Origin: Candidatus Buchananbacteria bacterium
GTDB taxonomy: Bacteria; Patescibacteriota; Patescibacteriia; Buchananbacterales; UBA6539
Reading direction: 5' to 3'
Assembly: GCA_016930315.1 (NCBI GenBank)
Contig: JAFGGX010000018.1
Location: forward strand, 1 to 45,119
DNA: 45,119 nucleotides
The translations under genes were made by a program, and so were the position numbers. This document shows, in pieces, positions 29,493-41,312 of this stretch. Within the stretch, counting starts at the first letter, position 1, and each line of letters begins with the position of its first letter. A model generated the notes under the pieces. That model ran no database searches, had not been told where the DNA came from, and was given only the letters and a program-made list of their open reading frames with translations.

Positions 29493-30638
29493 ATGAAATT
29501 ATTTAAAAATCAAAAAGATCGCAAACTTTTACAATCAATTTTTTTGGCTTCCGCCTTTGGTTTTTTTGCCGGTTTGGCTGGTCAAGCCTTAGGGACTGTT
29601 TATTTTGATCCGTGGCGGCAACATTTTTTGAATTATCAGACGCAAGTTATCCAGCAGCAAAATAATCAAACCTCAGATATCCAGGAGCTAAAAAAAGTTA
29701 AAAAAGTAATTGGCACCGAACAAGATTTTGCAGTTGACCAAGCGATTCGAAAAGTTGACGCCAGCGTGGTCGGTTTTTATCCAATCAAAAAGGCGAGTCA
29801 GAATATTTTACAGTCGATTTATTATCCGGCTGATTTGTTAGGCAGTGGGTTTATTTTAACCAGCGATGGCTGGTTAGCTACCGACCAATCAGTGGTGAAT
29901 GAAAATAAAAAGGGCTTGGTGGTTGTGGTTTATCAAGGTCAAGAGTATAAAATTGATCAATTAGTTACCGACCCGATGACTGGTATTACTTTTGTCAAAA
30001 TCACCGCTAATAATTTGCCAGTAGTTTTGCTGGGTGATTCCGATGAGCTTTTGGCTGGTCAATTGGTGGTGGGGGATAATTCTTTTGGTCAGGCCAGTGT
30101 TGATTATGTCAAAAGTCTCAATTTTCAAAATCAATCGACTAGTCAAGATTATGTTTTATCTTCGGAAAAATATGCTCGATTTATTTTATTAACTAACAAT
30201 CTAGATAATTCATATTTAGGTGGGCCAATCATTAATTCTAATGGCGAGGTGGTTGGCGTTATTCAATCAAATAAAAATCAGACTATTGTGGTACCAATTA
30301 ATCATTTTCGGCCAGTTTTGGTTAGCGTTTTTCGGGATGGTTCGATTAGGCGTTCTTATCTAGGAGTTCAATATATTGATTTATCTAATACAACCAGTGC
30401 ATCCGATCAGCAATCCGGTGCTTTAATTTATAGTCAGCCGAAAAAAAATTCGCCAGCCGCTAATGCTAAGTTACAAGTTGGTGATGTAATCATTAGTGTT
30501 GAAAATCAGTTGATCGACAAGACTAATAGTTTAGCTGAAATCATTCAGCAGTATCAGTCTGGCGATAGCTTAAATTTAGAGGTTTTGCGTGATGATAAAA
30601 ATATTAAATTGAACGTTTCTTTGTCCCCGTTGCCATAA
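29493..30638 (+). CDS. HtrA/DegP-like protein (trypsin-like + PDZ) with a degenerate catalytic triad
   Basis: GSGFILTSDG, LGDSDEL, GGPIINSNGEVVG, PDZ SPAANAKLQVGDVI; TDQSV replaces TNxHV and NSYLGGP replaces GNSGGP. Confidence 0.8.
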   Translation: MKLFKNQKDRKLLQSIFLASAFGFFAGLAGQALGTVYFDPWRQHFLNYQTQVIQQQNNQTSDIQELKKVKKVIGTEQDFAVDQAIRKVDASVVGFYPIKKASQNILQSIYYPADLLGSGFILTSDGWLATDQSVVNENKKGLVVVVYQGQEYKIDQLVTDPMTGITFVKITANNLPVVLLGDSDELLAGQLVVGDNSFGQASVDYVKSLNFQNQSTSQDYVLSSEKYARFILLTNNLDNSYLGGPIINSNGEVVGVIQSNKNQTIVVPINHFRPVLVSVFRDGSIRRSYLGVQYIDLSNTTSASDQQSGALIYSQPKKNSPAANAKLQVGDVIISVENQLIDKTNSLAEIIQQYQSGDSLNLEVLRDDKNIKLNVSLSPLP

Positions 30639-30657
30639 AAAATATTTTAAATTTTTT

Positions 30658-30695
30658 AACTAAAAAATCCCTCAACAAGTGGGGATTTTTTAGTT
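30658..30695. terminator. Bidirectional terminator
   Basis: AACTAAAAAATCCC…GGGATTTTTTAGTT between convergent genes. Confidence 0.85.
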
Positions 30696-30697
30696 AG

Positions 30698-30970
30698 TTA
30701 TTTTTCGAGTAGTTTTGGGTTAGGGGAGTAGAGTCGGTTTTTAATTTTCCATTTATCCACATATTGGCCGATGCCATTTTTAGCCAATTTATTTTTGGCA
30801 GTGGTTCTATTTTGCGACCATTCCAAAAGACTCTCAAAATTGATTTTATATCGACCTCTTACCACCACATATTTTATTTCTTGTTTGGCCAGCGCTCGTC
30901 TGATTGTTTTTTGGTCAACGCCAAATAGCCTTGAAGCCTCTGACACTGACACCCTAATCATGTTATTCAT
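30698..30970 (-). CDS. Small excisionase/MerR-like HTH DNA-binding protein
   Basis: SVSEASRLFGVDQKTIRRAL…RYKINFESLLEW winged HTH (start at 30970 or 30961). Confidence 0.8.
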   Translation of the reverse strand: MNNMIRVSVSEASRLFGVDQKTIRRALAKQEIKYVVVRGRYKINFESLLEWSQNRTTAKNKLAKNGIGQYVDKWKIKNRLYSPNPKLLEK

Positions 30971-30997
30971 AAGTTATTTTCTATTGACTTATTAAGG

Positions 30998-31027
30998 TAT
31001 TTTGTCTAGAATATTGTAGACAAAATA
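30998..31027. promoter_or_regulatory. Near-perfect 30-bp palindrome (candidate operator)
   Basis: TATTTTGTCTA-GAATATTG-TAGACAAAATA in the divergent intergenic region. Confidence 0.6.
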
Positions 31028-31109: not shown

Positions 31110-31177
31110 TTGACTAAAGGTGGATAAATTAATTATAATCAGGTTATTGTGTAACATTTATGCCTATTTATCGTCTA
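31110..31177 (+). promoter_or_regulatory. Tandem sigma70 and ECF promoters
   Basis: TTGACT-N18-TATAAT (31110-31139), then TGTAAC-N16-CGTCTA (31150-31177), with CGTC 7 nt before ATG 31183. Confidence 0.7.
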
Positions 31178-31182
31178 CTATA

Positions 31183-31740
31183 ATGAGTTTAAGTTTAAAA
31201 GAAAAACTTCTACTAGTCAGGTTGAAAAAGAAAGATAAAGATGCTTTTGGTGAGCTTTATGATTTGTACGTTGCTTCGATCTATCGGTTTATTTTTTTTA
31301 AGGTTCCAACCAGACAAGATGCCGAAGACTTAACCTCAGAAACTTTTTTGAAAATTTGGAATTACGTTGCCGAAACTCAAGAAGAAGTTAAGAATTTAAA
31401 ATCACTTTTATACACCACGGCCAGAAATTTAGTGGTCGATTTCTATCGCAAGAAATCGCAAGTTCAACTGGTTGGCGACGAGGAAACGCTTTTGAAAATT
31501 GAAGATAGCAGGCAGCAAAACATTCTTTCCCAAATTGACATCAAAGCAGAGGTCAATAATATTGAAGAAATTATTAAGGGATTAAAAGATGAATATCGGG
31601 AAGTAATTGTGATGCGGTATGTTGAACAACTTTCAATCACCGAGATTGCTGAAGTTTTAAATAAATCAAAAGGTTCGGTTCGAGTATTGGTCCATCGAGC
31701 TTTGAAAGTAGTTAAAGAGACTATCGAAAAAAATGTTTAA
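31183..31740 (+). CDS. ECF RNA polymerase sigma factor
   Basis: DAFGELYD.Y…IYRFI, AEDLTSETF, LYTTARNLVVDFYR, EIAEVLNKSKGSVRVLVHRA; start reassigned to ATG 31183. Confidence 0.92.
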   Translation: MSLSLKEKLLLVRLKKKDKDAFGELYDLYVASIYRFIFFKVPTRQDAEDLTSETFLKIWNYVAETQEEVKNLKSLLYTTARNLVVDFYRKKSQVQLVGDEETLLKIEDSRQQNILSQIDIKAEVNNIEEIIKGLKDEYREVIVMRYVEQLSITEIAEVLNKSKGSVRVLVHRALKVVKETIEKNV

Positions 31741-31745
31741 ATCAA

Positions 31746-32624
31746 ATGACTGAAGAAAAGTTGATTAAAAAAATTAAGAGTTTAAAAAATGTTAAACCAC
31801 GATCAGAGTGGCAAACTTTGAATCGTGATTTTTTATTATCTCAGATCAACCAGACAGCTGAAGAAAAGAGTTTTGGTTGGCAAGACTACGTGGTGGCTTT
31901 TGGTTCTCTTTTTCGCCAACGATTGTTAGAGCCGGCAGTTGTGATGTTGTTGGTCCTTGGTTTTTCAGTCGGCAGTAGTTTGGTGGTTAACGCTTCTTTT
32001 TATAGTTTGCCTGGTGACGGTCTGTATCCGGTTAAATTAGCTTTAGAAAGTGTTCAAATTGCTGTTAGCTCTGGTGATGAAAGAAAGGTTGAATTAAAAA
32101 TTGAATTCGCTAAAAAAAGAATTAATGAATTTGATCAAATTGCTTCTCGTTCAGACGATCAGACCCAAGAAAAAAATGATAAGTTAGCTGCAGTAGTCCA
32201 AGAATTACAACGTAATGTCGCTTCAGTTCAAAATCATATTAATAATATAGATAAAGATGGCAATCAATCCGATCACGATCGAACACTCAGAATCGCCATC
32301 ACCATCAGTAACGAAACTAAACAGTTAGCTCAGTCGCTAGATCAAAAAGCTAAAACCATCAGCGAAACCGATCCGGAAATTAAACAAATTGTCGATCAGG
32401 CAGTCGAATCAGTGCAGGCGGTCACTGTTTCGGCCGATAAGTTAGTTGAAGAAGAAAAGCAGTCTGCTATTGCCACCAGCACCGATCAAATAATTGATCA
32501 AGACAATCAACCCGGCGAGGTCTTGGGAGAAAGCAAAGATCTTACCGAGCAATCAAGTCAGGCAGAAGTCGAGTCGGCTGACAACAGTCAATCAGAATCA
32601 ACTGCCACTAATATAGAAAATTAA
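31746..32624 (+). CDS. DUF5667-domain putative anti-sigma factor
   Basis: One TM followed by SLPGDGLYPVKLALE…KRINE; acidic tail containing GEVLGE. Confidence 0.8.
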   Translation: MTEEKLIKKIKSLKNVKPRSEWQTLNRDFLLSQINQTAEEKSFGWQDYVVAFGSLFRQRLLEPAVVMLLVLGFSVGSSLVVNASFYSLPGDGLYPVKLALESVQIAVSSGDERKVELKIEFAKKRINEFDQIASRSDDQTQEKNDKLAAVVQELQRNVASVQNHINNIDKDGNQSDHDRTLRIAITISNETKQLAQSLDQKAKTISETDPEIKQIVDQAVESVQAVTVSADKLVEEEKQSAIATSTDQIIDQDNQPGEVLGESKDLTEQSSQAEVESADNSQSESTATNIEN

Positions 32625-32667
32625 ATAATTTATCTTACCTGCCAACTATAAGTTAGCGGGCTAGATA

Positions 32668-32881
32668 AGTTCATTTAAACTTTTTAGATTAATTAGGGTT
32701 TAGATTAGCCTTAAGTTTTAAGATAAAGGTCGACCACTAAAAAAGTCGGATCTTTAAACTTTTGAGGAATTTAGTAATCTAAACGCTCCATTCCTAGGGG
32801 AGCTAAGTGATGTTGTTGGTTTAGCCTAGGCGCAACAATATCACTTTAAAGTTACCTAACTAAAAAGTTTTCAAGTGGACT
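32668..32881 (+). ncRNA. Long structured 5' leader of the S-layer-like gene
   Basis: Nested helices 32668-76/32873-81, 32677-87/32860-70, 32698-707/32775-84, 32785-89/32799-803 and 32805-18/32833-46; SD AGAAAGGA immediately after. Confidence 0.75.
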
Positions 32882-32899
32882 AGAAAGGAATTTATTTTC

Positions 32900-35800
32900 A
32901 TGATTAAAAAATTATTAACCTACGCGTTAGTTGTAACAACAGCAGTCTGGTCATTAGGATTGCTTGCTACTCCATTGGCAGTAGGCGCCGCTTCAACCGG
33001 TGATTTAGTCAAACTTGATTGTGCGGCTAAAGACGGTATTTGCGATGCTGTTTACTACATTGGAACTGACGGTAGAAAGTATGTTTTCCCAAATGAGGGT
33101 ACATACTCAACCTGGTACACTGGTTTTGGCTCGGTGAAAAAGATTTCCCAAGTTGAAATGTCAGCTTATCCATCAGGCGGATTTGTGACTGTCAGACCAG
33201 GCGCTAGAGTCATTCAAATTGGTGGCGATTCAAGTTACTATGTGGTTTCTGGCGGCGGCAAGCTTCATTCAGTAACCGAAGCTCAAGCAGCTGAAATTTA
33301 TGGTAGTGATTGGAAAACCACTTCATTGGTTAGTATGAATGCTTTAAACAGCTACTACTACACCATGAATCCATCTCCAATTCCAGCTTTAGGGTCAGCT
33401 TCTGACTACGACAAAGCTGCTGAAATGGATGCTTCAGCTACTATTGATGCTGATAAAGCTTTAAGCGATAGTTCTCCAATCTCAACTGGTAGTTCTGTAA
33501 CTGTTTCATTAGCTCCAGACAGTCCAGCTTCTGGGATTGTTGTTGGTGGTGCAGCTGACGTTGCATTTACCAAAATCAACTTAACCGCTTCAGCTGACGG
33601 TGACATTATCATCGACAACTGGGGTGTAGTAAGAGGTGGTTTAGGTAATGATGCTGCTTTTGCCAGCGTTGACATCTTAGATGGTGCAACTATGTTGCCA
33701 ATCAACGATTCAGGCAAAACCTTCAACTCAGAACATGTTGCTAACTTTACCGATGACTTTACCATCCCAGCCGGTACAACTCGTTCAGTTTACTTAGCTG
33801 GTAACATGGCATCTCAAGCCACTATGGCTAGTTATGCCGGTGAAGTACCTGCTTTAGGTCTAAAAACATTGACCTTAAAAGGCAGTAGTTCAATTTCTGG
33901 CAGTTTGCCAATTTTTGGTAACTATCAGACAACCAATGCTACTATTACTATTGGTACTGCTACTGTTTCTAGAGGTGCTTACACCAATTCAACTTCAACT
34001 TTGGAAGTTGGAAAGACTAACTACACAATGTTTTCTTTCCAGGTTGCCAACAGCTCAGCTGAAGAAGCTCAATTTAGTTCAGTCAAAGTGTACCAGAGTG
34101 GTAGCGCTAGCTTGGCTAACGATTTAGCCAATATTAAGCTTTATCAAGATGGCACTGAGATTGCTAATGGTGTAGTTAGTGGTAATTACGTTACTTTTAC
34201 TTTTAGTCCAATTACTTTGACTAAAGGTCAAACTAAACAATTCTTAGTTAAAGCTGATGTTGTTGATGGTTCAGCTCGAACTATCCAATTAGGTCTTTAC
34301 CGATCAACCAACTTATTGTTGAAAGGTTTAACCTATGGTTACAACATTACCCCAACTTACAGTGGAACCGGTTCAAGCAGCAACAATCCAGTATTATCTG
34401 ACAACACCTTTACTATTTCGGCTGGTAGCTTGAGAGTTGGTCGCGCTAACACTATTGCCGCCGGCAATATCACTATTGGTGCAGATCAAACCATTGGTGC
34501 CTTCGAATTCCAAGCTAAAGGTGAACCAACCACTATTACTGCATTAACTTTGACCATCACTTCAAGTACTTCTGGTACTATTACCGAAGATGCTTTCAAG
34601 TCAGTCAAATTAGTTGACGCAGCTGGTAAAACCGTTGCTGGCCCAACCGATATTACTAACAATGCTTTGACCGTTGCTTTCACTGACACATTTACTGTGC
34701 CAACTGGCACTTCGGTTTATAAAGTTGTTGGTACTTTGGACACTAATGGTGGTTGGACAACCAATGACACCATTTATGCCAGCGTTACTCCTTCGGCCAT
34801 TACCGCCAAAGGTGAAACAACCGGTTTAACCATCACTCCATCACCAGCTTCAAGCATCTCAACTGTCACTCAAACAGTGAAAACTGCTACTTTGACCGTT
34901 GCTAAAAATTCTACTCCAACTGACAAAAATGTCATTGTTAATAGCACTGGCGTGTTGATTGGTAGCTGGAATTTTGATGCTTCAAATTCTGGTGAAAATA
35001 TCAGAGTCACTTCAATTTCAGTTAGAGCATCAACTACTGGTGCCTTGAATAACTTGACATTGAAAGATGGCAGTACAATTTTATTGCCAGTCAACGACAA
35101 TCCAGTCACTTATGACGGTGATGGCGATGCAACCGCTACTTCAACCTTCGCTTTAAGTGAACCTTTGATTATTACTAAAGGTACTTCAAAGAATTTAGAC
35201 CTTTATGCTGACATTGGTTCAAATTCAGCCGCTGGCGAAGTAGATGCTTGGGGTATTACTTCAAGCGCAGCTATTACTGCCTATGGTGTAACCACTGGCA
35301 ACGCTGCCACAGTTACTGTGACTGCTAACGATGGTGCTTTAGTTACCACTACTGGTGCAGGTACATTGGCAGTAAATGTCAATGGTATTCCTGGCCAATT
35401 ATTAGTGGCTGGCACTACCGGTGTTACATTGACCAATGTCAACTTAAAAGCTACTAATGAACCAATCGACGTTACTAAATTAACTGTTCGTATTGGTGAT
35501 GGTGGTTTAGAGGGTACAGCCGCTGGTGACTATACTCAAATCAGCAAAATCTACTTAAAGATTGATGGTAGCGTTGTTGGTAATGCTGATGGTTATGCAG
35601 TTGCCGCTGCTACTAAGCAGATCAACCTTGAAAGAGGCGCATTAACCATTCCAGCCACCGATGATGGTAAAGATTTAGTTGTTTTGGGTGACATTGTTTC
35701 GATGGGCACCAACCAACCAGGTACAGCTAATGCCGACATTGTCGTTGGTTTATCTGGTCAAAATGGTTTCACTGCCACTGGTAACGGTTCTAATACTACT

Positions 35801-36457
35801 GCTACCTTCGACTACAACAGTTCAACCGGTTCAGCGATGATTATTCACAAAGCTGTTCCTCAGGTTGTAATTGAAACCCCAACTAACAAATTAGCCGCTA
35901 CCGCTTCTCTACAGAGAACCAAAATTACCGCCGTTGGTAACAAAATTGGTGTGTACAAATTATCATTTGTGACCACCACTTCAACCGGTGTTAATTTGAC
36001 TAACGGTTATATCAAGTTGGCTTCAAGTTGTGGTAGTTTAAGTTCAGGTACAGTGTTATCTGCCGCAACCCCTGCTGGCACAGACATTGGCGCTGGTATT
36101 AAGACTTGGGGTCTTAAAATTAGTAACGCCTTGAATACAACCAAATATTATTTGGATATCAACAAAGACAGTACTTGTAGTATTGATTTCTATGCTACTA
36201 TTGGTACTACATCTAATGTTGATACTGTTTCAACTAGTTTGTTGGGCGATACCGCCACTAGCACTACTAATCATGTTGCTGGTGCGGAAGCTGATACATT
36301 CGTTACTAACGACCAAGGTAACTTTGTTTGGTCAGATTTGAATGCAGATCAGACTCAAACCGCTGGTTCTTTGACTGCCAGCCAATGGTACAATGGTTAC
36401 CTAGTTGAAGGCTTAGGTTCTACTTCTACTTCTACACCAGTTACTGTCGGTGAATAA
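32900..36457 (+). CDS. Large Thr/Ser/Gly-rich secreted surface protein (S-layer-like), 1185 aa
   Basis: Signal peptide, YVFPNE N-domain, serial beta-rich domains; strongly biased codons (GCT/ACT/GGT/TCA, TTC/AAC/TAC) suggest high expression; SD present. Confidence 0.75.
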   Translation: MIKKLLTYALVVTTAVWSLGLLATPLAVGAASTGDLVKLDCAAKDGICDAVYYIGTDGRKYVFPNEGTYSTWYTGFGSVKKISQVEMSAYPSGGFVTVRPGARVIQIGGDSSYYVVSGGGKLHSVTEAQAAEIYGSDWKTTSLVSMNALNSYYYTMNPSPIPALGSASDYDKAAEMDASATIDADKALSDSSPISTGSSVTVSLAPDSPASGIVVGGAADVAFTKINLTASADGDIIIDNWGVVRGGLGNDAAFASVDILDGATMLPINDSGKTFNSEHVANFTDDFTIPAGTTRSVYLAGNMASQATMASYAGEVPALGLKTLTLKGSSSISGSLPIFGNYQTTNATITIGTATVSRGAYTNSTSTLEVGKTNYTMFSFQVANSSAEEAQFSSVKVYQSGSASLANDLANIKLYQDGTEIANGVVSGNYVTFTFSPITLTKGQTKQFLVKADVVDGSARTIQLGLYRSTNLLLKGLTYGYNITPTYSGTGSSSNNPVLSDNTFTISAGSLRVGRANTIAAGNITIGADQTIGAFEFQAKGEPTTITALTLTITSSTSGTITEDAFKSVKLVDAAGKTVAGPTDITNNALTVAFTDTFTVPTGTSVYKVVGTLDTNGGWTTNDTIYASVTPSAITAKGETTGLTITPSPASSISTVTQTVKTATLTVAKNSTPTDKNVIVNSTGVLIGSWNFDASNSGENIRVTSISVRASTTGALNNLTLKDGSTILLPVNDNPVTYDGDGDATATSTFALSEPLIITKGTSKNLDLYADIGSNSAAGEVDAWGITSSAAITAYGVTTGNAATVTVTANDGALVTTTGAGTLAVNVNGIPGQLLVAGTTGVTLTNVNLKATNEPIDVTKLTVRIGDGGLEGTAAGDYTQISKIYLKIDGSVVGNADGYAVAAATKQINLERGALTIPATDDGKDLVVLGDIVSMGTNQPGTANADIVVGLSGQNGFTATGNGSNTTATFDYNSSTGSAMIIHKAVPQVVIETPTNKLAATASLQRTKITAVGNKIGVYKLSFVTTTSTGVNLTNGYIKLASSCGSLSSGTVLSAATPAGTDIGAGIKTWGLKISNALNTTKYYLDINKDSTCSIDFYATIGTTSNVDTVSTSLLGDTATSTTNHVAGAEADTFVTNDQGNFVWSDLNADQTQTAGSLTASQWYNGYLVEGLGSTSTSTPVTVGE

Positions 36458-36574: not shown

Positions 36575-37327
36575 ATGGATAATTTGGATCAAAAAGTTAA
36601 ATTAAACAGTAAAAAGATGGTTGTTAGAATCGTAGCAGTTGCTATTTTAGCCATTGTCGTGGTTTTTGGTGTGTTATTTTATTATCAATCTCAAGGTTTA
36701 ATTAAGGTTTTTCCAACGGCTAAAGATTTTGAGATCAGAAAATTAACCAGTATCGATGAAAATAAATTTAGACCGGCTGAAGGCTTGGACATGAAAATCT
36801 TTGATGATAAAATTAGCCAACTTCAAAATCTAAGGTCAGAGATTCTAAAAGACCCAGAAAATCCTTCAAATTGGGATGATTTTGCCCAGATAAAAGAATT
36901 TTTAAATGATCATCAAGGAGCAATCGATGCTTGGGAAATGGCTTATCAGTTGCAGCCATATAATTTTAGAACCACTTATAATTTGGCTAATGTCTATCAA
37001 TATTTTATTAAAGATTATCAAAAAGCAGAAGAATATTATCTTGAAACTCTTGAGCTGCAGCCGGGCTTAACAATCGCTTATCAGGGCTTGATGGATCTGT
37101 ACCGCTATAATTTGCCAGACTCACAGGATAAATATGAGCCAATTGTTTTGCAAGCAATTGAAAAAAACTCAGCCAATAGCGTTGAGTACTATTCGCAATT
37201 AATTAGTTTTTTTGAATCTAAAAACAATCAAGATTTAGACAAGGCTAAAGCCTATTATTCTGAATTAAAAAAGATAGATCCAAAAAAAGCCGCTTCGGTT
37301 TTGGGTAATTATCCTAATTTAAAGTAG
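36575..37327 (+). CDS. Membrane-anchored TPR protein
   Basis: N-terminal TM; TPR-like helices (YNLANVYQYF..DYQKAEEYY..TL.LQP). Confidence 0.75.
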   Translation: MDNLDQKVKLNSKKMVVRIVAVAILAIVVVFGVLFYYQSQGLIKVFPTAKDFEIRKLTSIDENKFRPAEGLDMKIFDDKISQLQNLRSEILKDPENPSNWDDFAQIKEFLNDHQGAIDAWEMAYQLQPYNFRTTYNLANVYQYFIKDYQKAEEYYLETLELQPGLTIAYQGLMDLYRYNLPDSQDKYEPIVLQAIEKNSANSVEYYSQLISFFESKNNQDLDKAKAYYSELKKIDPKKAASVLGNYPNLK

Positions 37328-37333
37328 TTAATT

Positions 37334-39619
37334 ATGACTAGTTATTTGGAAAAAATTAGTCTTTGGATTATTTATATTTGCGTTGGTATTACTCTAGTTG
37401 CAGCTTTGTTGATTGATAATCGATTTTTTTTCCCATTTATTTTTACAAAAGTTTTGGTTTTTCGCTTGGCTGTCGAAATAATGCTTTTAGCTTATCTTTT
37501 TTTGATTTATAGAAATCGTCAATATTTACCTCGGTTTAATTTTTTGTCAGTAGTCCTTTTGTTATTTGTTATTATAGCTTTTTTTTCTTCAGTTTTTGGA
37601 GTTGATTTTCATCTAAGTTTTTGGGGGGATATTGAAAGGGGAGAGGGGCTAATTTTATGGCTTCATTTGCTGGCATATTTTTTTATTTTAAGTTCGGTAT
37701 TTAGAAAAGAAAATTATTGGTTGCCATTTTTTGATTTTTCCTTATTGGTTTCTTTGTTCGTCTCAGCCTTTGCTTTGGCTCAATTATTCGGCGCGGAGTC
37801 AATTTTGAATACCACTGGTAGTCGAGTGGCGTCAACTATTGGCAATCCAGCCTTTTTAGCAGCCTATCTTTTGCTTAATCTTGGCTTGGCTATTTATTTA
37901 TTATTTCGTCGCCATAACATTTATTTAAAAATATACTACAGTATTTTAAGTTTACTTTTTATTTTTATTATGGTTCAAACTCAGACCAGGGGAGCTATCG
38001 TTGGGCTTGCTATTGGTTTGTTTTTGGCGTTGGTTCTTTGGTTGTTTAAGGCTAGCAATAAAAAAGTTAGAATTTGGGCAGGGGGAGGAATCCTAATTAT
38101 TTTGGTTATTAGTTTTTTATTTTATTCCGCTAGAAATAGTAATTTTATAAAAAATAATCAAGCTTTGGCTAGAATCGCTTCTATCTCCTTGCAAGAGCGA
38201 ACCGCAGAAACTAGGCTGGCAACTTGGCAGGCGGCTTGGCAGGGGGTTAAGGAGCGTCCATTTTTTGGCTATGGCTTAGAGAATTTCACTTACGTTTTTG
38301 ATCGACATTTTCCGGCCATTATTTATGAAGATCAGGGTTCACAAGTCTGGTTTGACCGTGCCCATAATATAATCTTTGACCGAGCTATAACAGTTGGAAT
38401 CGCAGGCTTGATTGTCTACCTTCTATTTATTTTTAGTCCGGTTTTTTATTTGAATCGAAAGGAAAAATTTAAAACCAGTATGTCTTTGCCAATTATTATG
38501 GTTGGCTTAATAATTGCTTTTTTTGTTCAAGATTTGTTTGTCTTTGAAGCTGTTACTACCTATATTATGTTATTTTTTGTTTGGTCTTTTATGTCAATTT
38601 TTGCAACTGATTTTAAATTTAAATGGCCGCAGCAGGGTGCGAATCGGATAATTGGTCTATTGCCATTTATCACTTATTTAATCTTTATTTCCCCGTTGAT
38701 TTATTTAGTTAATATCAAACCAGCCCAAGCCAATCTTGATGCCGCTACCGCCATTGTTGATAGTCAAAATGGCACTAATGACTTTTTTAAAGTGGTCGAT
38801 CAATTTAAAAATGTTTTAGCTATTGACACTTACGGCATCCCAGAATATCGTATTCAATTCATTCAGTTTGTCGATCAGAATTTGGCTAATTTAGGGCCGG
38901 TCGCGCTGTCGGTTATTCCGATCCTTAATTATGCCGATCAACAGGTTGATATCCAACTAATCGACCAGCCTAACAATGCTAAAAATTATTTGTTGGCGAT
39001 GAGGCATTATAATTATACTTTTGCTTCTCTACCGGAGCAAAAATTTGATCGTCTACAAAAAGCTTTGAGTTACTTGCCTAAACTAGAAGAATTATCACCT
39101 GATCGACCGCAGGTTTATCAAGAGGCTGGCTATAGTCATTTGTATTTATATCGCAATTATAAAGATCAGAACAATTTGGATCAGGCAGGTCAAGAGGTGG
39201 CTTTAGCTGAGCAATATTTTAATCGAGTCATAGATATTAATCCACAAGTGGTTGAATCTTATTCTAATTTGATTATGTTGTATTTGAATACTAATGATAA
39301 TGAAAAAATTCAAAAAACAGTTGATGAGATGGTTGATTTGGCGCCTAATTATCAAAAACCTTCCTATTTAAATAATTTTATTAATTTATCGGTTGGCAAT
39401 AAAAATTATTATTGGGCTCAGTATTTTGTTGAACGCTGGTTAGAAGTTGATCCAGAAAATTTAGATTTATTTACTCAATTAGCTCTGGCTTACGCCTATC
39501 AGGGTAAAGATCAGCAGGCGATCGATACGGCCAATAAAATTAAGGCTATAAACGGTCAATATTCCGACCAAGCGGATTTATTTATTCAGGATGTCAAGGC
39601 TGGCAAATATAAAAATTAA
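37334..39619 (+). CDS. O-antigen ligase (Wzy_C)-family protein with C-terminal TPR; candidate oligosaccharyltransferase
   Basis: RVASTIGNPAFLA, TQTRGA, R…W..A…..ERPFFGYG, DRAHN motifs; ~12 TM. Confidence 0.85.
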   Translation: MTSYLEKISLWIIYICVGITLVAALLIDNRFFFPFIFTKVLVFRLAVEIMLLAYLFLIYRNRQYLPRFNFLSVVLLLFVIIAFFSSVFGVDFHLSFWGDIERGEGLILWLHLLAYFFILSSVFRKENYWLPFFDFSLLVSLFVSAFALAQLFGAESILNTTGSRVASTIGNPAFLAAYLLLNLGLAIYLLFRRHNIYLKIYYSILSLLFIFIMVQTQTRGAIVGLAIGLFLALVLWLFKASNKKVRIWAGGGILIILVISFLFYSARNSNFIKNNQALARIASISLQERTAETRLATWQAAWQGVKERPFFGYGLENFTYVFDRHFPAIIYEDQGSQVWFDRAHNIIFDRAITVGIAGLIVYLLFIFSPVFYLNRKEKFKTSMSLPIIMVGLIIAFFVQDLFVFEAVTTYIMLFFVWSFMSIFATDFKFKWPQQGANRIIGLLPFITYLIFISPLIYLVNIKPAQANLDAATAIVDSQNGTNDFFKVVDQFKNVLAIDTYGIPEYRIQFIQFVDQNLANLGPVALSVIPILNYADQQVDIQLIDQPNNAKNYLLAMRHYNYTFASLPEQKFDRLQKALSYLPKLEELSPDRPQVYQEAGYSHLYLYRNYKDQNNLDQAGQEVALAEQYFNRVIDINPQVVESYSNLIMLYLNTNDNEKIQKTVDEMVDLAPNYQKPSYLNNFINLSVGNKNYYWAQYFVERWLEVDPENLDLFTQLALAYAYQGKDQQAIDTANKIKAINGQYSDQADLFIQDVKAGKYKN

Positions 39620-41312
39620 TTTAATAGTTTTAGCGGTTATTTTATTATTAGCCGGATTTCTGCGTGGCTATGGCCTGACTAGTCATGATTTATTGACCGA
39701 CGATTCTCTCTATTCATTTCGCGCCCTTGGTTATTTTGATTATTTAGCCGCTGGTGGACAGACTACTCCGATTCAATGGTTTGGTCACATTCCTTGGTGG
39801 GCAAATTTGTCTTTTCATGATGCTCCTCCGTTAGTTTTTATTATTCAAAAAATATTTTTTTTAATTTTTGGGGATAATACTTTAGCGGCTCGGTTACCAT
39901 TTTTTTTCGCTGGCTTAGTCTCGGTGGCTATAATGTATTTTATTTTTTTAGAATTATTCAAAAAAAAGTGGCCCTCATTTTTAGGAGCAACTTTTTTTTC
40001 ATTTCTGGCTAGTAATATTTGGGTTAGTCAGGTGGGCTATTTGGAAGGCTTTGCTATTGTTTTTATTAGTTTATCACTACTATTTTTTATTAAGTTTATT
40101 AATTCTGATAAAAATAGTTGGCTGATGTGGTGTGGGGCTGCGATTGGCTTGGCCTTAATAACTAAATATACAACTCTATTTTTAATTCCCACTTACCTTT
40201 TTTATCTAGTATTTTTTAAAAGAGAAATTTTTAAGCAATCAAGATTTTATTTATCGATATTGATTTCTTTTATCGTCTTTCTGCCAGTTGGTTTTTATAA
40301 TTTGATGGTTTATCAAACTCGGGGCCATTTTGATGCGGCCATCTCTTCGATGGTTGGCATGCATCCACAAGATTTTAGTACTATTTCTGGTCGTAGTATT
40401 AGTATTAATTATTGGTCTAATTTTTCGGCCATTTTTAAAACTTTGGCCAGTCTAGTTTCTTGGCCAATTATGGCTTTATTTGTCCTTTCATTGATTTATG
40501 CTGTTTGGTGTTTGACTAGTAGGAGGAATACTAATTATTTCTTTTTATTTTTTATTGGATTAATTTTTTTAATTTTAGAATTTATTTTTATTGGAGCTAG
40601 TAATCGATTTTTGCCAATTTTTAATTCATTTTTGGTTGGGATTATTTGCTTGGCATTTTTTGATTGTTGGTCATTATTTGCCAGCCATAAAATTAAATCT
40701 TTTATTCTCCTGACTTTGGTCGGTTTGATGCTCGGCTGGGAGCTATTTTATGGAATTAATTTTTTAGCTCAGGGTGGAATCAATAAAAATAGATTTTTTT
40801 ATTCTGTTGGCTTGAGTGAAAAAAGTTTAGGTTTTAATAGGTTGACTGATTATTTTGATAAAAATATTTTGACAGAAGATGATAGATTAGTTAGACCAAA
40901 GAAGCTTTCAGATGTTTCTGATCGTGCTGGAGAATATATAAAAGAAAAGAGAACCATTTTTTTAGTTGATGGCTCAATCAGTTGGTTTGCTTATATGTGG
41001 TATGAGTTGAAATATCCTATTTATTATGGCCTACCATTTGTTTTCATTGATCAGCAGCAGTTTTTCACTCAACAAGATTTTATTCAATATTTAGACAATT
41101 TCGAAAAAATAGGAGCAGAGAATTTTTATTATATTTTTGCTCAAGATAGCTCCTTGGTTGATTCGGTAAAAATAAATAATGGTTCAAGAGAGAATAATCA
41201 AGCGGTTGCCAGTTATCTTAATAATTTTAGCGTCTCTTTTGATGAGATAAAAAACGATCGTGGCTTTGTTGCTTTCAGAATTTATCAATTTAATTTAAAA
41301 ACTATAAATTAG
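39591..41312 (+). CDS. GT-C glycosyltransferase (GT39/ArnT-PMT-like)
   Basis: LTDDSLY, HDAPPL, AARLP, LALITKYT; many TM helices. Confidence 0.8.
   Translation: MSRLANIKINLIVLAVILLLAGFLRGYGLTSHDLLTDDSLYSFRALGYFDYLAAGGQTTPIQWFGHIPWWANLSFHDAPPLVFIIQKIFFLIFGDNTLAARLPFFFAGLVSVAIMYFIFLELFKKKWPSFLGATFFSFLASNIWVSQVGYLEGFAIVFISLSLLFFIKFINSDKNSWLMWCGAAIGLALITKYTTLFLIPTYLFYLVFFKREIFKQSRFYLSILISFIVFLPVGFYNLMVYQTRGHFDAAISSMVGMHPQDFSTISGRSISINYWSNFSAIFKTLASLVSWPIMALFVLSLIYAVWCLTSRRNTNYFFLFFIGLIFLILEFIFIGASNRFLPIFNSFLVGIICLAFFDCWSLFASHKIKSFILLTLVGLMLGWELFYGINFLAQGGINKNRFFYSVGLSEKSLGFNRLTDYFDKNILTEDDRLVRPKKLSDVSDRAGEYIKEKRTIFLVDGSISWFAYMWYELKYPIYYGLPFVFIDQQQFFTQQDFIQYLDNFEKIGAENFYYIFAQDSSLVDSVKINNGSRENNQAVASYLNNFSVSFDEIKNDRGFVAFRIYQFNLKTIN

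Follow-up and report, generated by a model that had tools for sequence, protein, structure and literature searches.

A conserved multi-branched RNA leader with a bulge-hairpin core precedes a large putative surface-protein gene in Parcubacteria

The window that we analysed, a stretch of 45,119 nucleotides from a genome of Candidatus Buchananbacteria, contains on its plus strand a gap between two reading frames (positions 32625-32899) in which a structured leader is predicted to lie. On the 5' side of this gap, in the same orientation, there is a gene for an ECF-type sigma factor (31120..31740, plus strand; Pfam Sigma70_r2, r4 and r4_2), followed by a gene for a membrane protein of 292 aa with a DUF5667 domain (31746..32624, plus strand; Pfam E-value 5.6e-11), the translation of which has an anti-sigma-like layout, namely, a short N-terminal part, one hydrophobic segment and a coiled extracytoplasmic part. 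The GTG at 31120, the listed start of the sigma gene, overlaps a promoter-like site at 31110-31139, and therefore the true start of this gene probably is located further downstream. Divergently from the sigma gene, on the minus strand, a protein of 90 aa with an HTH_17 domain (excisionase or MerR-like) is encoded at 30698-30970. The arrangement around the leader is widespread: the upstream gene encodes a DUF5667 protein in 48 of the 67 related loci tested, with a methyltransferase gene found in this position at some others, and all six BLAST-matched relatives that were checked in detail show the same order of sigma gene, DUF5667 gene, gap and large frame.

The large frame on the 3' side of the gap (32900..36457, plus strand, with the ATG at 32900) encodes a protein of 1185 aa that starts with a hydrophobic signal or anchor segment and has a body rich in Thr, Ser, Ala and Gly. 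This protein matches no Pfam family and has no relative among the solved structures in the PDB, and the protein-atlas clusters that match it are all annotated as 'hypothetical protein'; nevertheless, its N-terminal 140 residues are conserved across 503 relatives. Further downstream, at 36575-41312, there are genes for a TPR protein, a Wzy_C (O-antigen ligase-like) protein with TPR and a PMT_2 glycosyltransferase, which may represent a glycosylation set for the Thr/Ser-rich protein. From the composition, the anchor segment and the glycosylation-type neighbours, we infer that the 1185-aa product is a glycosylated, secreted or anchored protein that would merit the name 'major surface protein', and it is in this sense that we speak of the surface-protein gene below.

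The predicted leader domain comprises about 215 nt (32668-32881, plus strand) and consists of two stacked closing helices around three arms. It is separated from the stop codon of the DUF5667 gene by a distinct hairpin, P0 (32630..32668, plus strand), that is part of the minimum-energy fold. The outer closing helix, P1, pairs 32668-32676 with 32873-32881, and the inner one, P2, which covaries, pairs 32677-32687 with 32860-32870; both are recovered by RNAfold on the plus strand. They are followed by a conserved unpaired AAUU and by P3, a helix of 5 bp with the 5' strand UUAGG (32693-32697 with 32855-32859, plus strand), so that the 3' strands of P3, P2 and P1 together occupy 32855..32881. The first arm, P4 (32698..32784, plus strand), supported by RNAfold and by covariation, is long and carries an internal bulge and a tip hairpin: its base helix (32698-32707 with 32775-32784) and extension (32709-32724 with 32750-32767) lead to the core bulge AAAGGUCG on the 5' side (32725..32732), directly 5' of a small tip hairpin at 32731-32748. 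The second arm, P5 (32785..32803, plus strand, RNAfold), is a short hairpin of variable sequence, and the third, P6 (32805..32846, plus strand), is a lineage-specific hairpin with a near-invariant stem and the tip GCCUAGGC.

For the segment 32625-32905 on the plus strand, RNAfold yields -86.2 kcal/mol compared to a mean of -55.6 (standard deviation 4.9) for shuffled sequences, that is, z = -6.28, with none of the 200 shuffles folding as well; the minus strand folds more weakly (-69.6 kcal/mol, z = -4.80). The original prediction, which had been made from the letters of this DNA, withstands this comparison well: the helices that it drew are all present in the sequence, RNAfold recovers the same architecture, the separate hairpin that it placed at about 32630-32668 is P0, and the structure indeed closes immediately before the Shine-Dalgarno sequence, which starts one base after P1. 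The bulge AAAGGT that it left unpaired in P4 is a more complicated matter. The fold of lowest energy for this genome pairs the conserved AAAGGUC with a downstream GAUCUUU, and the bulge is by prediction mostly paired (unpaired probability of 0.11), whereas the unpaired form, not the minimum-energy pairing, agrees with the consensus of the family.

The leader stretch occurs only once in this 0.9-Mb genome. A BLAST comparison with 40 relatives produced seven significant partial matches, all in genomes of the same family, and a pattern describing the P6 arm occurred a single time in 14 of the 20 genomes of the family and never in the controls. From these 14 sequences a covariance model was built, which gives one match per genome in 23 of 31 genomes of the order, among them 18 of the 19 other members of the family; in 151 sampled genomes of the class it yields six matches, one of them false. 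Altogether, 25 of the 27 model matches are followed by an orthologous frame with the same conserved N-terminus, one of the remaining two being cut off by the end of a contig and the other being the false match, before an unrelated frame. Among the named relatives, the closest are labelled Candidatus Buchananbacteria and the more distant ones Uhrbacteria, Falkowbacteria or Parcubacteria group. The leader is, then, a conserved, single-copy element tied to the surface-protein gene. Its peripheral parts vary considerably: only 14 of 24 sequences have P6, the other true matches lacking it or having a different element in its place, P5 is found in most relatives with varying sequence and is absent in some, and the length of the leader ranges from about 180 to 670 nt. 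All true matches retain the closing helices, the AAUU that stays unpaired 5' of P3 and the AAAGGUCG word in P4, with a one-letter variant of the latter in the locus L069.

Pairing was counted in 24 sequences aligned to the covariance model, and 93.2% of 1062 cells form standard pairs compared to 76.6% in column shuffles, with the proviso that the alignment is fitted to the structure, which favours the structure. Changes on both sides are seen in 43 of the 50 pairs, and none of 500 shuffles reaches any of the five measures used; when the 3' partners are slid by 1-3 columns, pairing is found in only 34-53% of the cells. Compensatory changes are apparent already in 27 of the 50 pairs in a plain MAFFT alignment of 14 sequences. 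The individual helices conform to this picture: in P3, 100% of the cells are paired and all five pairs have changed on both sides; in the helices of P4, every pair has changed on both sides in some sequence; and P1, which lies outside the model, forms in 23 of the 24 sequences with quite different letters. As far as can be judged from the aligned sequences, the shape of the leader is held by compensatory evolution. The G-U pairs that the original prediction took as a sign of selection at the RNA level are found in 128 cells of the alignment compared to 17 cells with A-C, and the consensus fold of the alignment is better on the plus strand (-27.4) than on the minus strand (-16.2); together, these observations indicate that the RNA is read in the direction of the gene.

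The same counts bear on the possibility that the gap harbours an independent small RNA gene or a site bound by a protein at the DNA level. One could cite in favour of a DNA site the tip of P6, at 32822-32829, where the 8-nt palindrome GCCUAGGC corresponds to the 8-bp DNA palindrome GCCTAGGC, and the HTH_17 protein that is encoded divergently upstream. In one relative, the palindrome is kept via a double change (to CACCTAGGTG, also given as CACCUAGGUG), but a 3-bp stem around a CUAG loop accounts for this change equally well, and the change also fits loop-loop dimerisation. The excess of G-U over A-C and the covariation of helices without sequence conservation point to recognition of RNA rather than DNA, and a small RNA gene is hard to reconcile with a stretch that has no terminator after P1 and a ribosome-binding site one base further on. 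We therefore consider either version of this explanation most improbable.

The Shine-Dalgarno sequence AGAAAGGA (32882..32889, plus strand) comprises 8 nt complementary to the 3' end of the 16S rRNA, which in this genome reads ...CACCTCCTTTCTAG (the rRNA in the assembly consists only of the last ~590 nt of the 16S and a 23S fragment), and is conserved in relatives as AAGAAAGGAA. Its predicted mean unpaired probability is 0.67 compared to 0.30 for the leader, and 15 of the 20 sequences with a valid prediction have a value above 0.5; one more, mis-scored by the search pattern, was left out. Leaders of the Uhrbacteria type (L092, L095, L096 and L113) are without the AAGAAAGGAA box before the start codon. 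They possess instead a GCCC-GCAA-GGGC hairpin, the loop and 3' arm of which hold the only word resembling a Shine-Dalgarno sequence, AAGGG, 7 nt before the ATG, and the ribosome-binding site may thus be structured in this lineage.

The leader does not belong to any RNA family that we could recognise. In the region 32300-33200, the best Rfam match is a plant microRNA model with 23.9 bits against a threshold of 48; the whole window contains only a tRNA; and 20 diverse related leaders searched against Rfam 15 produced only two sub-threshold microRNA matches. The T-box, tRNA-like and kink-turn elements were considered and rejected, given that their defining words are absent and that there is no Rfam match. 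Among the papers listed by a full-text search, to judge from titles and the opening lines of abstracts, none deals with this leader RNA, and none of those listed contains the word DUF5667. The suggestion that the leader is a candidate new cis-regulatory RNA, for which a search of Rfam and a comparison of orthologous leaders had been proposed as checks, is accordingly strengthened on both counts: the orthologous leaders preserve the pairing via compensatory changes and, the tRNA aside, no Rfam family reaches its threshold in the window or in the 20 related leaders.

Could the leader then be a riboswitch, in which a small molecule bound at the junction or in the bulge would alter expression? A conserved multi-branched fold in a 5' leader, with strong covariation and with an invariant unpaired AAUU before P3 and AAAGGUCG in P4, could be counted in favour of such an element, and as no known family matches, it would have to be a new class. 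However, there is no sign of an expression platform: no terminator-like site was detected on the plus strand inside the leader, and the Shine-Dalgarno sequence is not sequestered in 15 of the 20 valid predictions. Furthermore, beyond the bulge-hairpin the architecture differs between lineages, with P6 in 14 of 24 sequences and with lengths between about 180 and 670 nt, unlike that of an aptamer, and a structural surface protein would be, in our judgement, an unusual target. On balance, we consider a riboswitch very unlikely.

The part of the leader that is conserved most widely is the bulge word AAAGGUCG, which is invariant in all 14 family sequences, and the AAGGUCG word of the bulge-hairpin reads AAAGGTCG in DNA letters. 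The range of this motif was assessed by counting it on the gene strand within 450 nt upstream of the best 80 of the 503 loci that encode the conserved N-terminal domain. The motif [A/C]AAGG[U/C]CG is found in 70 of these 80 best loci across Parcubacteria, that is, within 36 kb of upstream sequence, compared to a background in the same loci of 23 occurrences in the remaining 224 kb of the same strand and 26 on the opposite strand. Six of the ten loci that lack it are paralogue-like, with a protein match that begins at query residue 9 or later. These six (L081, L091, L107, L118, L127 and L129) encode second, paralogue-like copies of the N-terminal domain in related genomes, matching from residue 9-34, and are without AAGGUCG upstream, which suggests that the leader marks only the main orthologue. 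As for the other four, L069 has the one-letter variant AAAAGTCG at the position of the motif in the model alignment, L103 likewise has a one-letter variant, L135 has the motif about 470 nt upstream, just past the 450-nt limit, and in L109 no motif was seen upstream.

The context of the motif is constant. A helix is broken on its 5' side by 0-5 variable bases and AAGGUCG(A/G); these are immediately succeeded by a hairpin of 4-8 bp, and after another 0-2 bases the helix resumes. In 31 sequences, pairing in the hairpin after the motif reaches 98.9%, both sides have changed in 72 cells, and the covariation score is 1.01 compared to 0.27 in shuffles, in an alignment that is fitted to the structure and so favours pairing; the closing helix has at least 3 bp in all 31 sequences, in varying register. 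The motif accompanies the surface-protein gene even where the upstream gene encodes a methyltransferase. The core of the leader, a new feature of this analysis, is thus a 5'-side bulge [A/C]AAGG[U/C]CG combined with a covarying hairpin, and it is this AAGGUCG bulge-hairpin that links leaders of otherwise different shape. Two short models of the core, R2 and R3, proved too weak for searches: in the genome of the window, the best match of R2 is the leader, at an E-value of only 0.47, and R3 gives 27 matches at E ≤ 0.1 outside this genome, in 23 of 151 genomes sampled across the phylum. The R3 matches were dismissed as noise, all of them lying inside or beside unrelated reading frames and none before the N-terminal domain, so that the range of the motif rests on the protein-anchored count. 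A scan of the same genome, outside long reading frames, for the motif and its reverse complement as a possible antisense partner revealed none in the same context.

What could read such a motif? The bulge contains (G)AAAGG, which is the core of the gene's own Shine-Dalgarno sequence, and the AAAGG (often GAAAGG) is complementary to CCUUU(C) in the tail of the 16S rRNA, ...CACCUCCUUUCU, over only 5-6 nt; this shared word hints at the ribosome as the partner. The invariant UCG that follows AAAGG has no complementarity to the 16S tail, so that pairing with the ribosome does not by itself explain the motif, and this part of it hints at a protein.

Among the possible roles of the leader, we favour that of a cis-acting 5' domain that makes and keeps the surface-protein mRNA abundant, with the bulge-hairpin as a docking site for a factor; we would assign to this reading a probability of roughly 0.45. 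According to this scenario, the leader would be the 5' untranslated region of the large surface-protein mRNA and would form a closed multi-helix RNA domain, the stable structure of which, near the 5' end, would block decay by the RNase Y / RNase J route, while the long A-rich Shine-Dalgarno sequence just after P1 would stay open for ribosomes. The bulge-hairpin would be the docking site for a conserved trans-acting partner, either the 30S subunit or a protein, and the partner bound to the bulge would add protection or feedback. The genome encodes both RNase J (TIGR00649, 492.6 bits, cut-off 400) and RNase Y (629.9 bits, cut-off 454), and RNase E/G was not found in it, a combination that indicates a decay system of the Bacillus type. 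In such systems, degradation from the 5' end is blocked by structures near that end or by bound ribosomes.

Two precedents are relevant to this scenario. In Lactobacillus, stem-loops in the 5' UTR of the S-layer gene slpA are described as stabilising the transcript and exposing the ribosome-binding site, with truncation lowering expression (PMC10221546). The resemblance is that of leaders of abundant surface-layer mRNAs in which a stable 5' structure precedes an exposed ribosome-binding site, although in our case the abundance is presumed, the exposure is predicted and the surface role comes from the features of the protein listed above; there is no homology in sequence or structure, the slpA element being a simple stem-loop compared to a multi-branched domain of ~215 nt with an invariant bulge. 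By this analogy, a stabilising role of the leader is plausible. In Bacillus thuringiensis, the STAB-SD of cry3A is reported to bind the 30S subunit and to block 5'-to-3' decay by RNase J1 (PMC4113751). Here too, a word resembling a Shine-Dalgarno sequence, (G)AAAGG in the bulge, is located far upstream of the start in the leader of a gene that is, in our case presumably, massively expressed, and RNase J is present in both organisms, but only 5-6 nt of the word match the 16S tail, the UCG does not, and the word is found inside a helix bulge rather than at a processed 5' end. Moreover, if the leader were nothing but a stabiliser, the invariance of a 7-nt motif across distant lineages would not be required.

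A different type of regulation would be one in which a dedicated RNA-binding protein, be it the unexported surface protein, its chaperone or another conserved factor, would bind the bulge-hairpin as an operator and tune translation or decay to export and assembly. Binding sites for proteins typically show the pattern seen here: the small bulge keeps its sequence strictly over distant lineages, and the adjacent hairpin is free to vary. The motif also stays with the surface-protein gene where a methyltransferase gene is upstream, and paralogue-like loci that share the N-terminal domain, six of the ten without the motif, lack it. A parallel is the control of the flagellin (hag) leader in Bacillus subtilis by CsrA-FliW, which provides for homeostasis of a secreted, self-assembling surface polymer. 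If the operator reading holds, the likeness would extend to a purine-rich motif on a 5'-leader hairpin, with a second, similar motif at the ribosome-binding site. CsrA itself, however, is a poor candidate for the binder: the best match to PF02599 in the genome has 19.9 bits against a cut-off of 27 and is located inside a 756-aa frame, and the motif contains GGU and not the GGA that CsrA requires. All things considered, control by such a protein appears rather unlikely to be the principal function of the leader.

An extended version of the same idea can be offered tentatively, although it, too, is on the unlikely side. The AAGGUCG(A/G) bulge-hairpin might be the operator of a feedback circuit of a new kind common to Parcubacteria, in which a conserved partner, a protein or the ribosome, would read the motif on the main envelope mRNA and couple coat synthesis to export or assembly, while the lineage-specific arms (P5, P6 and their counterparts) would tune the response. 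Parcubacteria and their relatives are ultra-small, uncultured organisms with genomes of about 1 Mb, few regulators and an attached lifestyle that depends on the cell surface, and to our knowledge almost nothing has been established on the control of gene expression in them. If such a circuit exists, the candidate phyla radiation would have its first defined class of regulatory RNA, and the way in which minimal cells control their surface would become open to study. If the bulge-hairpin binds a specific partner, a new regulatory system is at hand; if the leader only stabilises the mRNA, a known strategy gains one more example. The leader, being conserved, covarying, absent from Rfam and tied to one giant surface protein across many lineages, is a concrete regulatory element that probably sets the amount of the surface protein made, and the bulge-hairpin can be used as a marker for the main surface-protein gene in new genomes.

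The origin of the transcript that carries the leader has a bearing on the remaining alternative. Two metatranscriptome contig sets from one study contained no match to the locus. The site before the sigma gene (31110-31139) reads TTGACT-18-TATAAT, a match of 11 out of 12 positions, and a second near-consensus site of the sigma-70 type, TTGACT-17-TAGAAT, is located at 30984-31012, also before the sigma gene. Between the DUF5667 gene and the leader there is one promoter candidate, with 9 out of 12 positions matched at 32602-32629; such matches are no commoner than in shuffled sequences, and there is no convincing promoter between the upstream gene and the leader in the window. In one relative, the gap itself contains a promoter-like site with 11 out of 12 matches, which lies on the 5' side of the leader model at a distance of about 120 nt. 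By eye, no motif of fixed spacing corresponding to an ECF-type AAC...CGT -35/-10 pair was recognised in 21 aligned upstream regions; the words CCCAAC...GTTGGG that occur there form the two sides of the P0 stem, around loops of 5-17 nt. Also by eye, 16 of 21 relatives have a TAnnnT hexamer, often TAATTT, that starts with the stop codon of the DUF5667 gene and is located 5-13 nt before P0; this hexamer could be a -10 element, in which case transcription would start at the foot of P0.

In 21 of 21 relatives, the position of P0 is taken by a hairpin with an energy of -6 kcal/mol or better, and by the tail criteria used here none of the 21 has a T-rich tail. A terminator-scan program called the hairpin terminator-like in one (L036) of the two relatives on which it was run and did not flag P0 of the window. 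In contrast to P0, the hairpin that follows the gene for an HtrA-like protease (29493-30638) is a canonical intrinsic terminator (30656-30697), with a 17-bp stem and then a T-run, which indicates that the organism does use classical terminators. A conserved AU-rich box (UAAUUAA-like) abuts P1. The transcript might either have its own start at the foot of P0 or result from read-through from the regulator genes and subsequent processing.

The second of these possibilities can be developed into an account of the leader as a processing site: the sigma, DUF5667 and surface-protein genes would be co-transcribed from the strong promoter-like site 5' of the sigma gene, RNase Y would cut at single-stranded, A-rich sequence adjoining a helix, with the AU-rich linker 5' of P1 and the bulge as the two candidate places, and the part with the structured 5' end would outlive the regulator part. 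The cggR-gapA operon of Bacillus subtilis, in which RNase Y processes the intercistronic region and the downstream mRNA outlives the regulator part, is a possible counterpart, with regulator genes upstream of a highly expressed gene (in our case presumably so) on one strand and a structured element in between that could provide the downstream part with a protected 5' end; RNase Y and RNase J are both encoded in the genome studied here. The strong promoter-like match before the sigma gene, the position of the only canonical terminator upstream of that gene, the hairpin without a T-tract in all 21 relatives, which makes read-through plausible, the presence of both nucleases and the AU-rich box next to P1 are all compatible with this account. 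Unlike cggR-gapA, however, at least one relative has its own promoter-like site in the gap, 5' of the leader; the motif is present also where the upstream gene is unrelated; and one P0, that of L036, is called terminator-like. In addition, we know of no requirement of RNase Y for a fixed 7-nt word, which likewise counts against processing as the reason for the conserved bulge. We regard processing as distinctly unlikely to be the main function of this leader, compared to the stabilising 5' domain that we favour.

Two minor observations concern the P6 arm. The possibility that an upstream reading frame in P6 encodes a conserved peptide was dismissed, inasmuch as the ATG opens 4 to 19 codons and, by eye, the frames differ between genomes. 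In a contig from a groundwater metagenome (X2), a single base of the P6 3' strand, at position 32844, is absent, possibly by error given a depth of 2.6; the contig is 90-99% like the window over 32613-33404, with 28 other letters.
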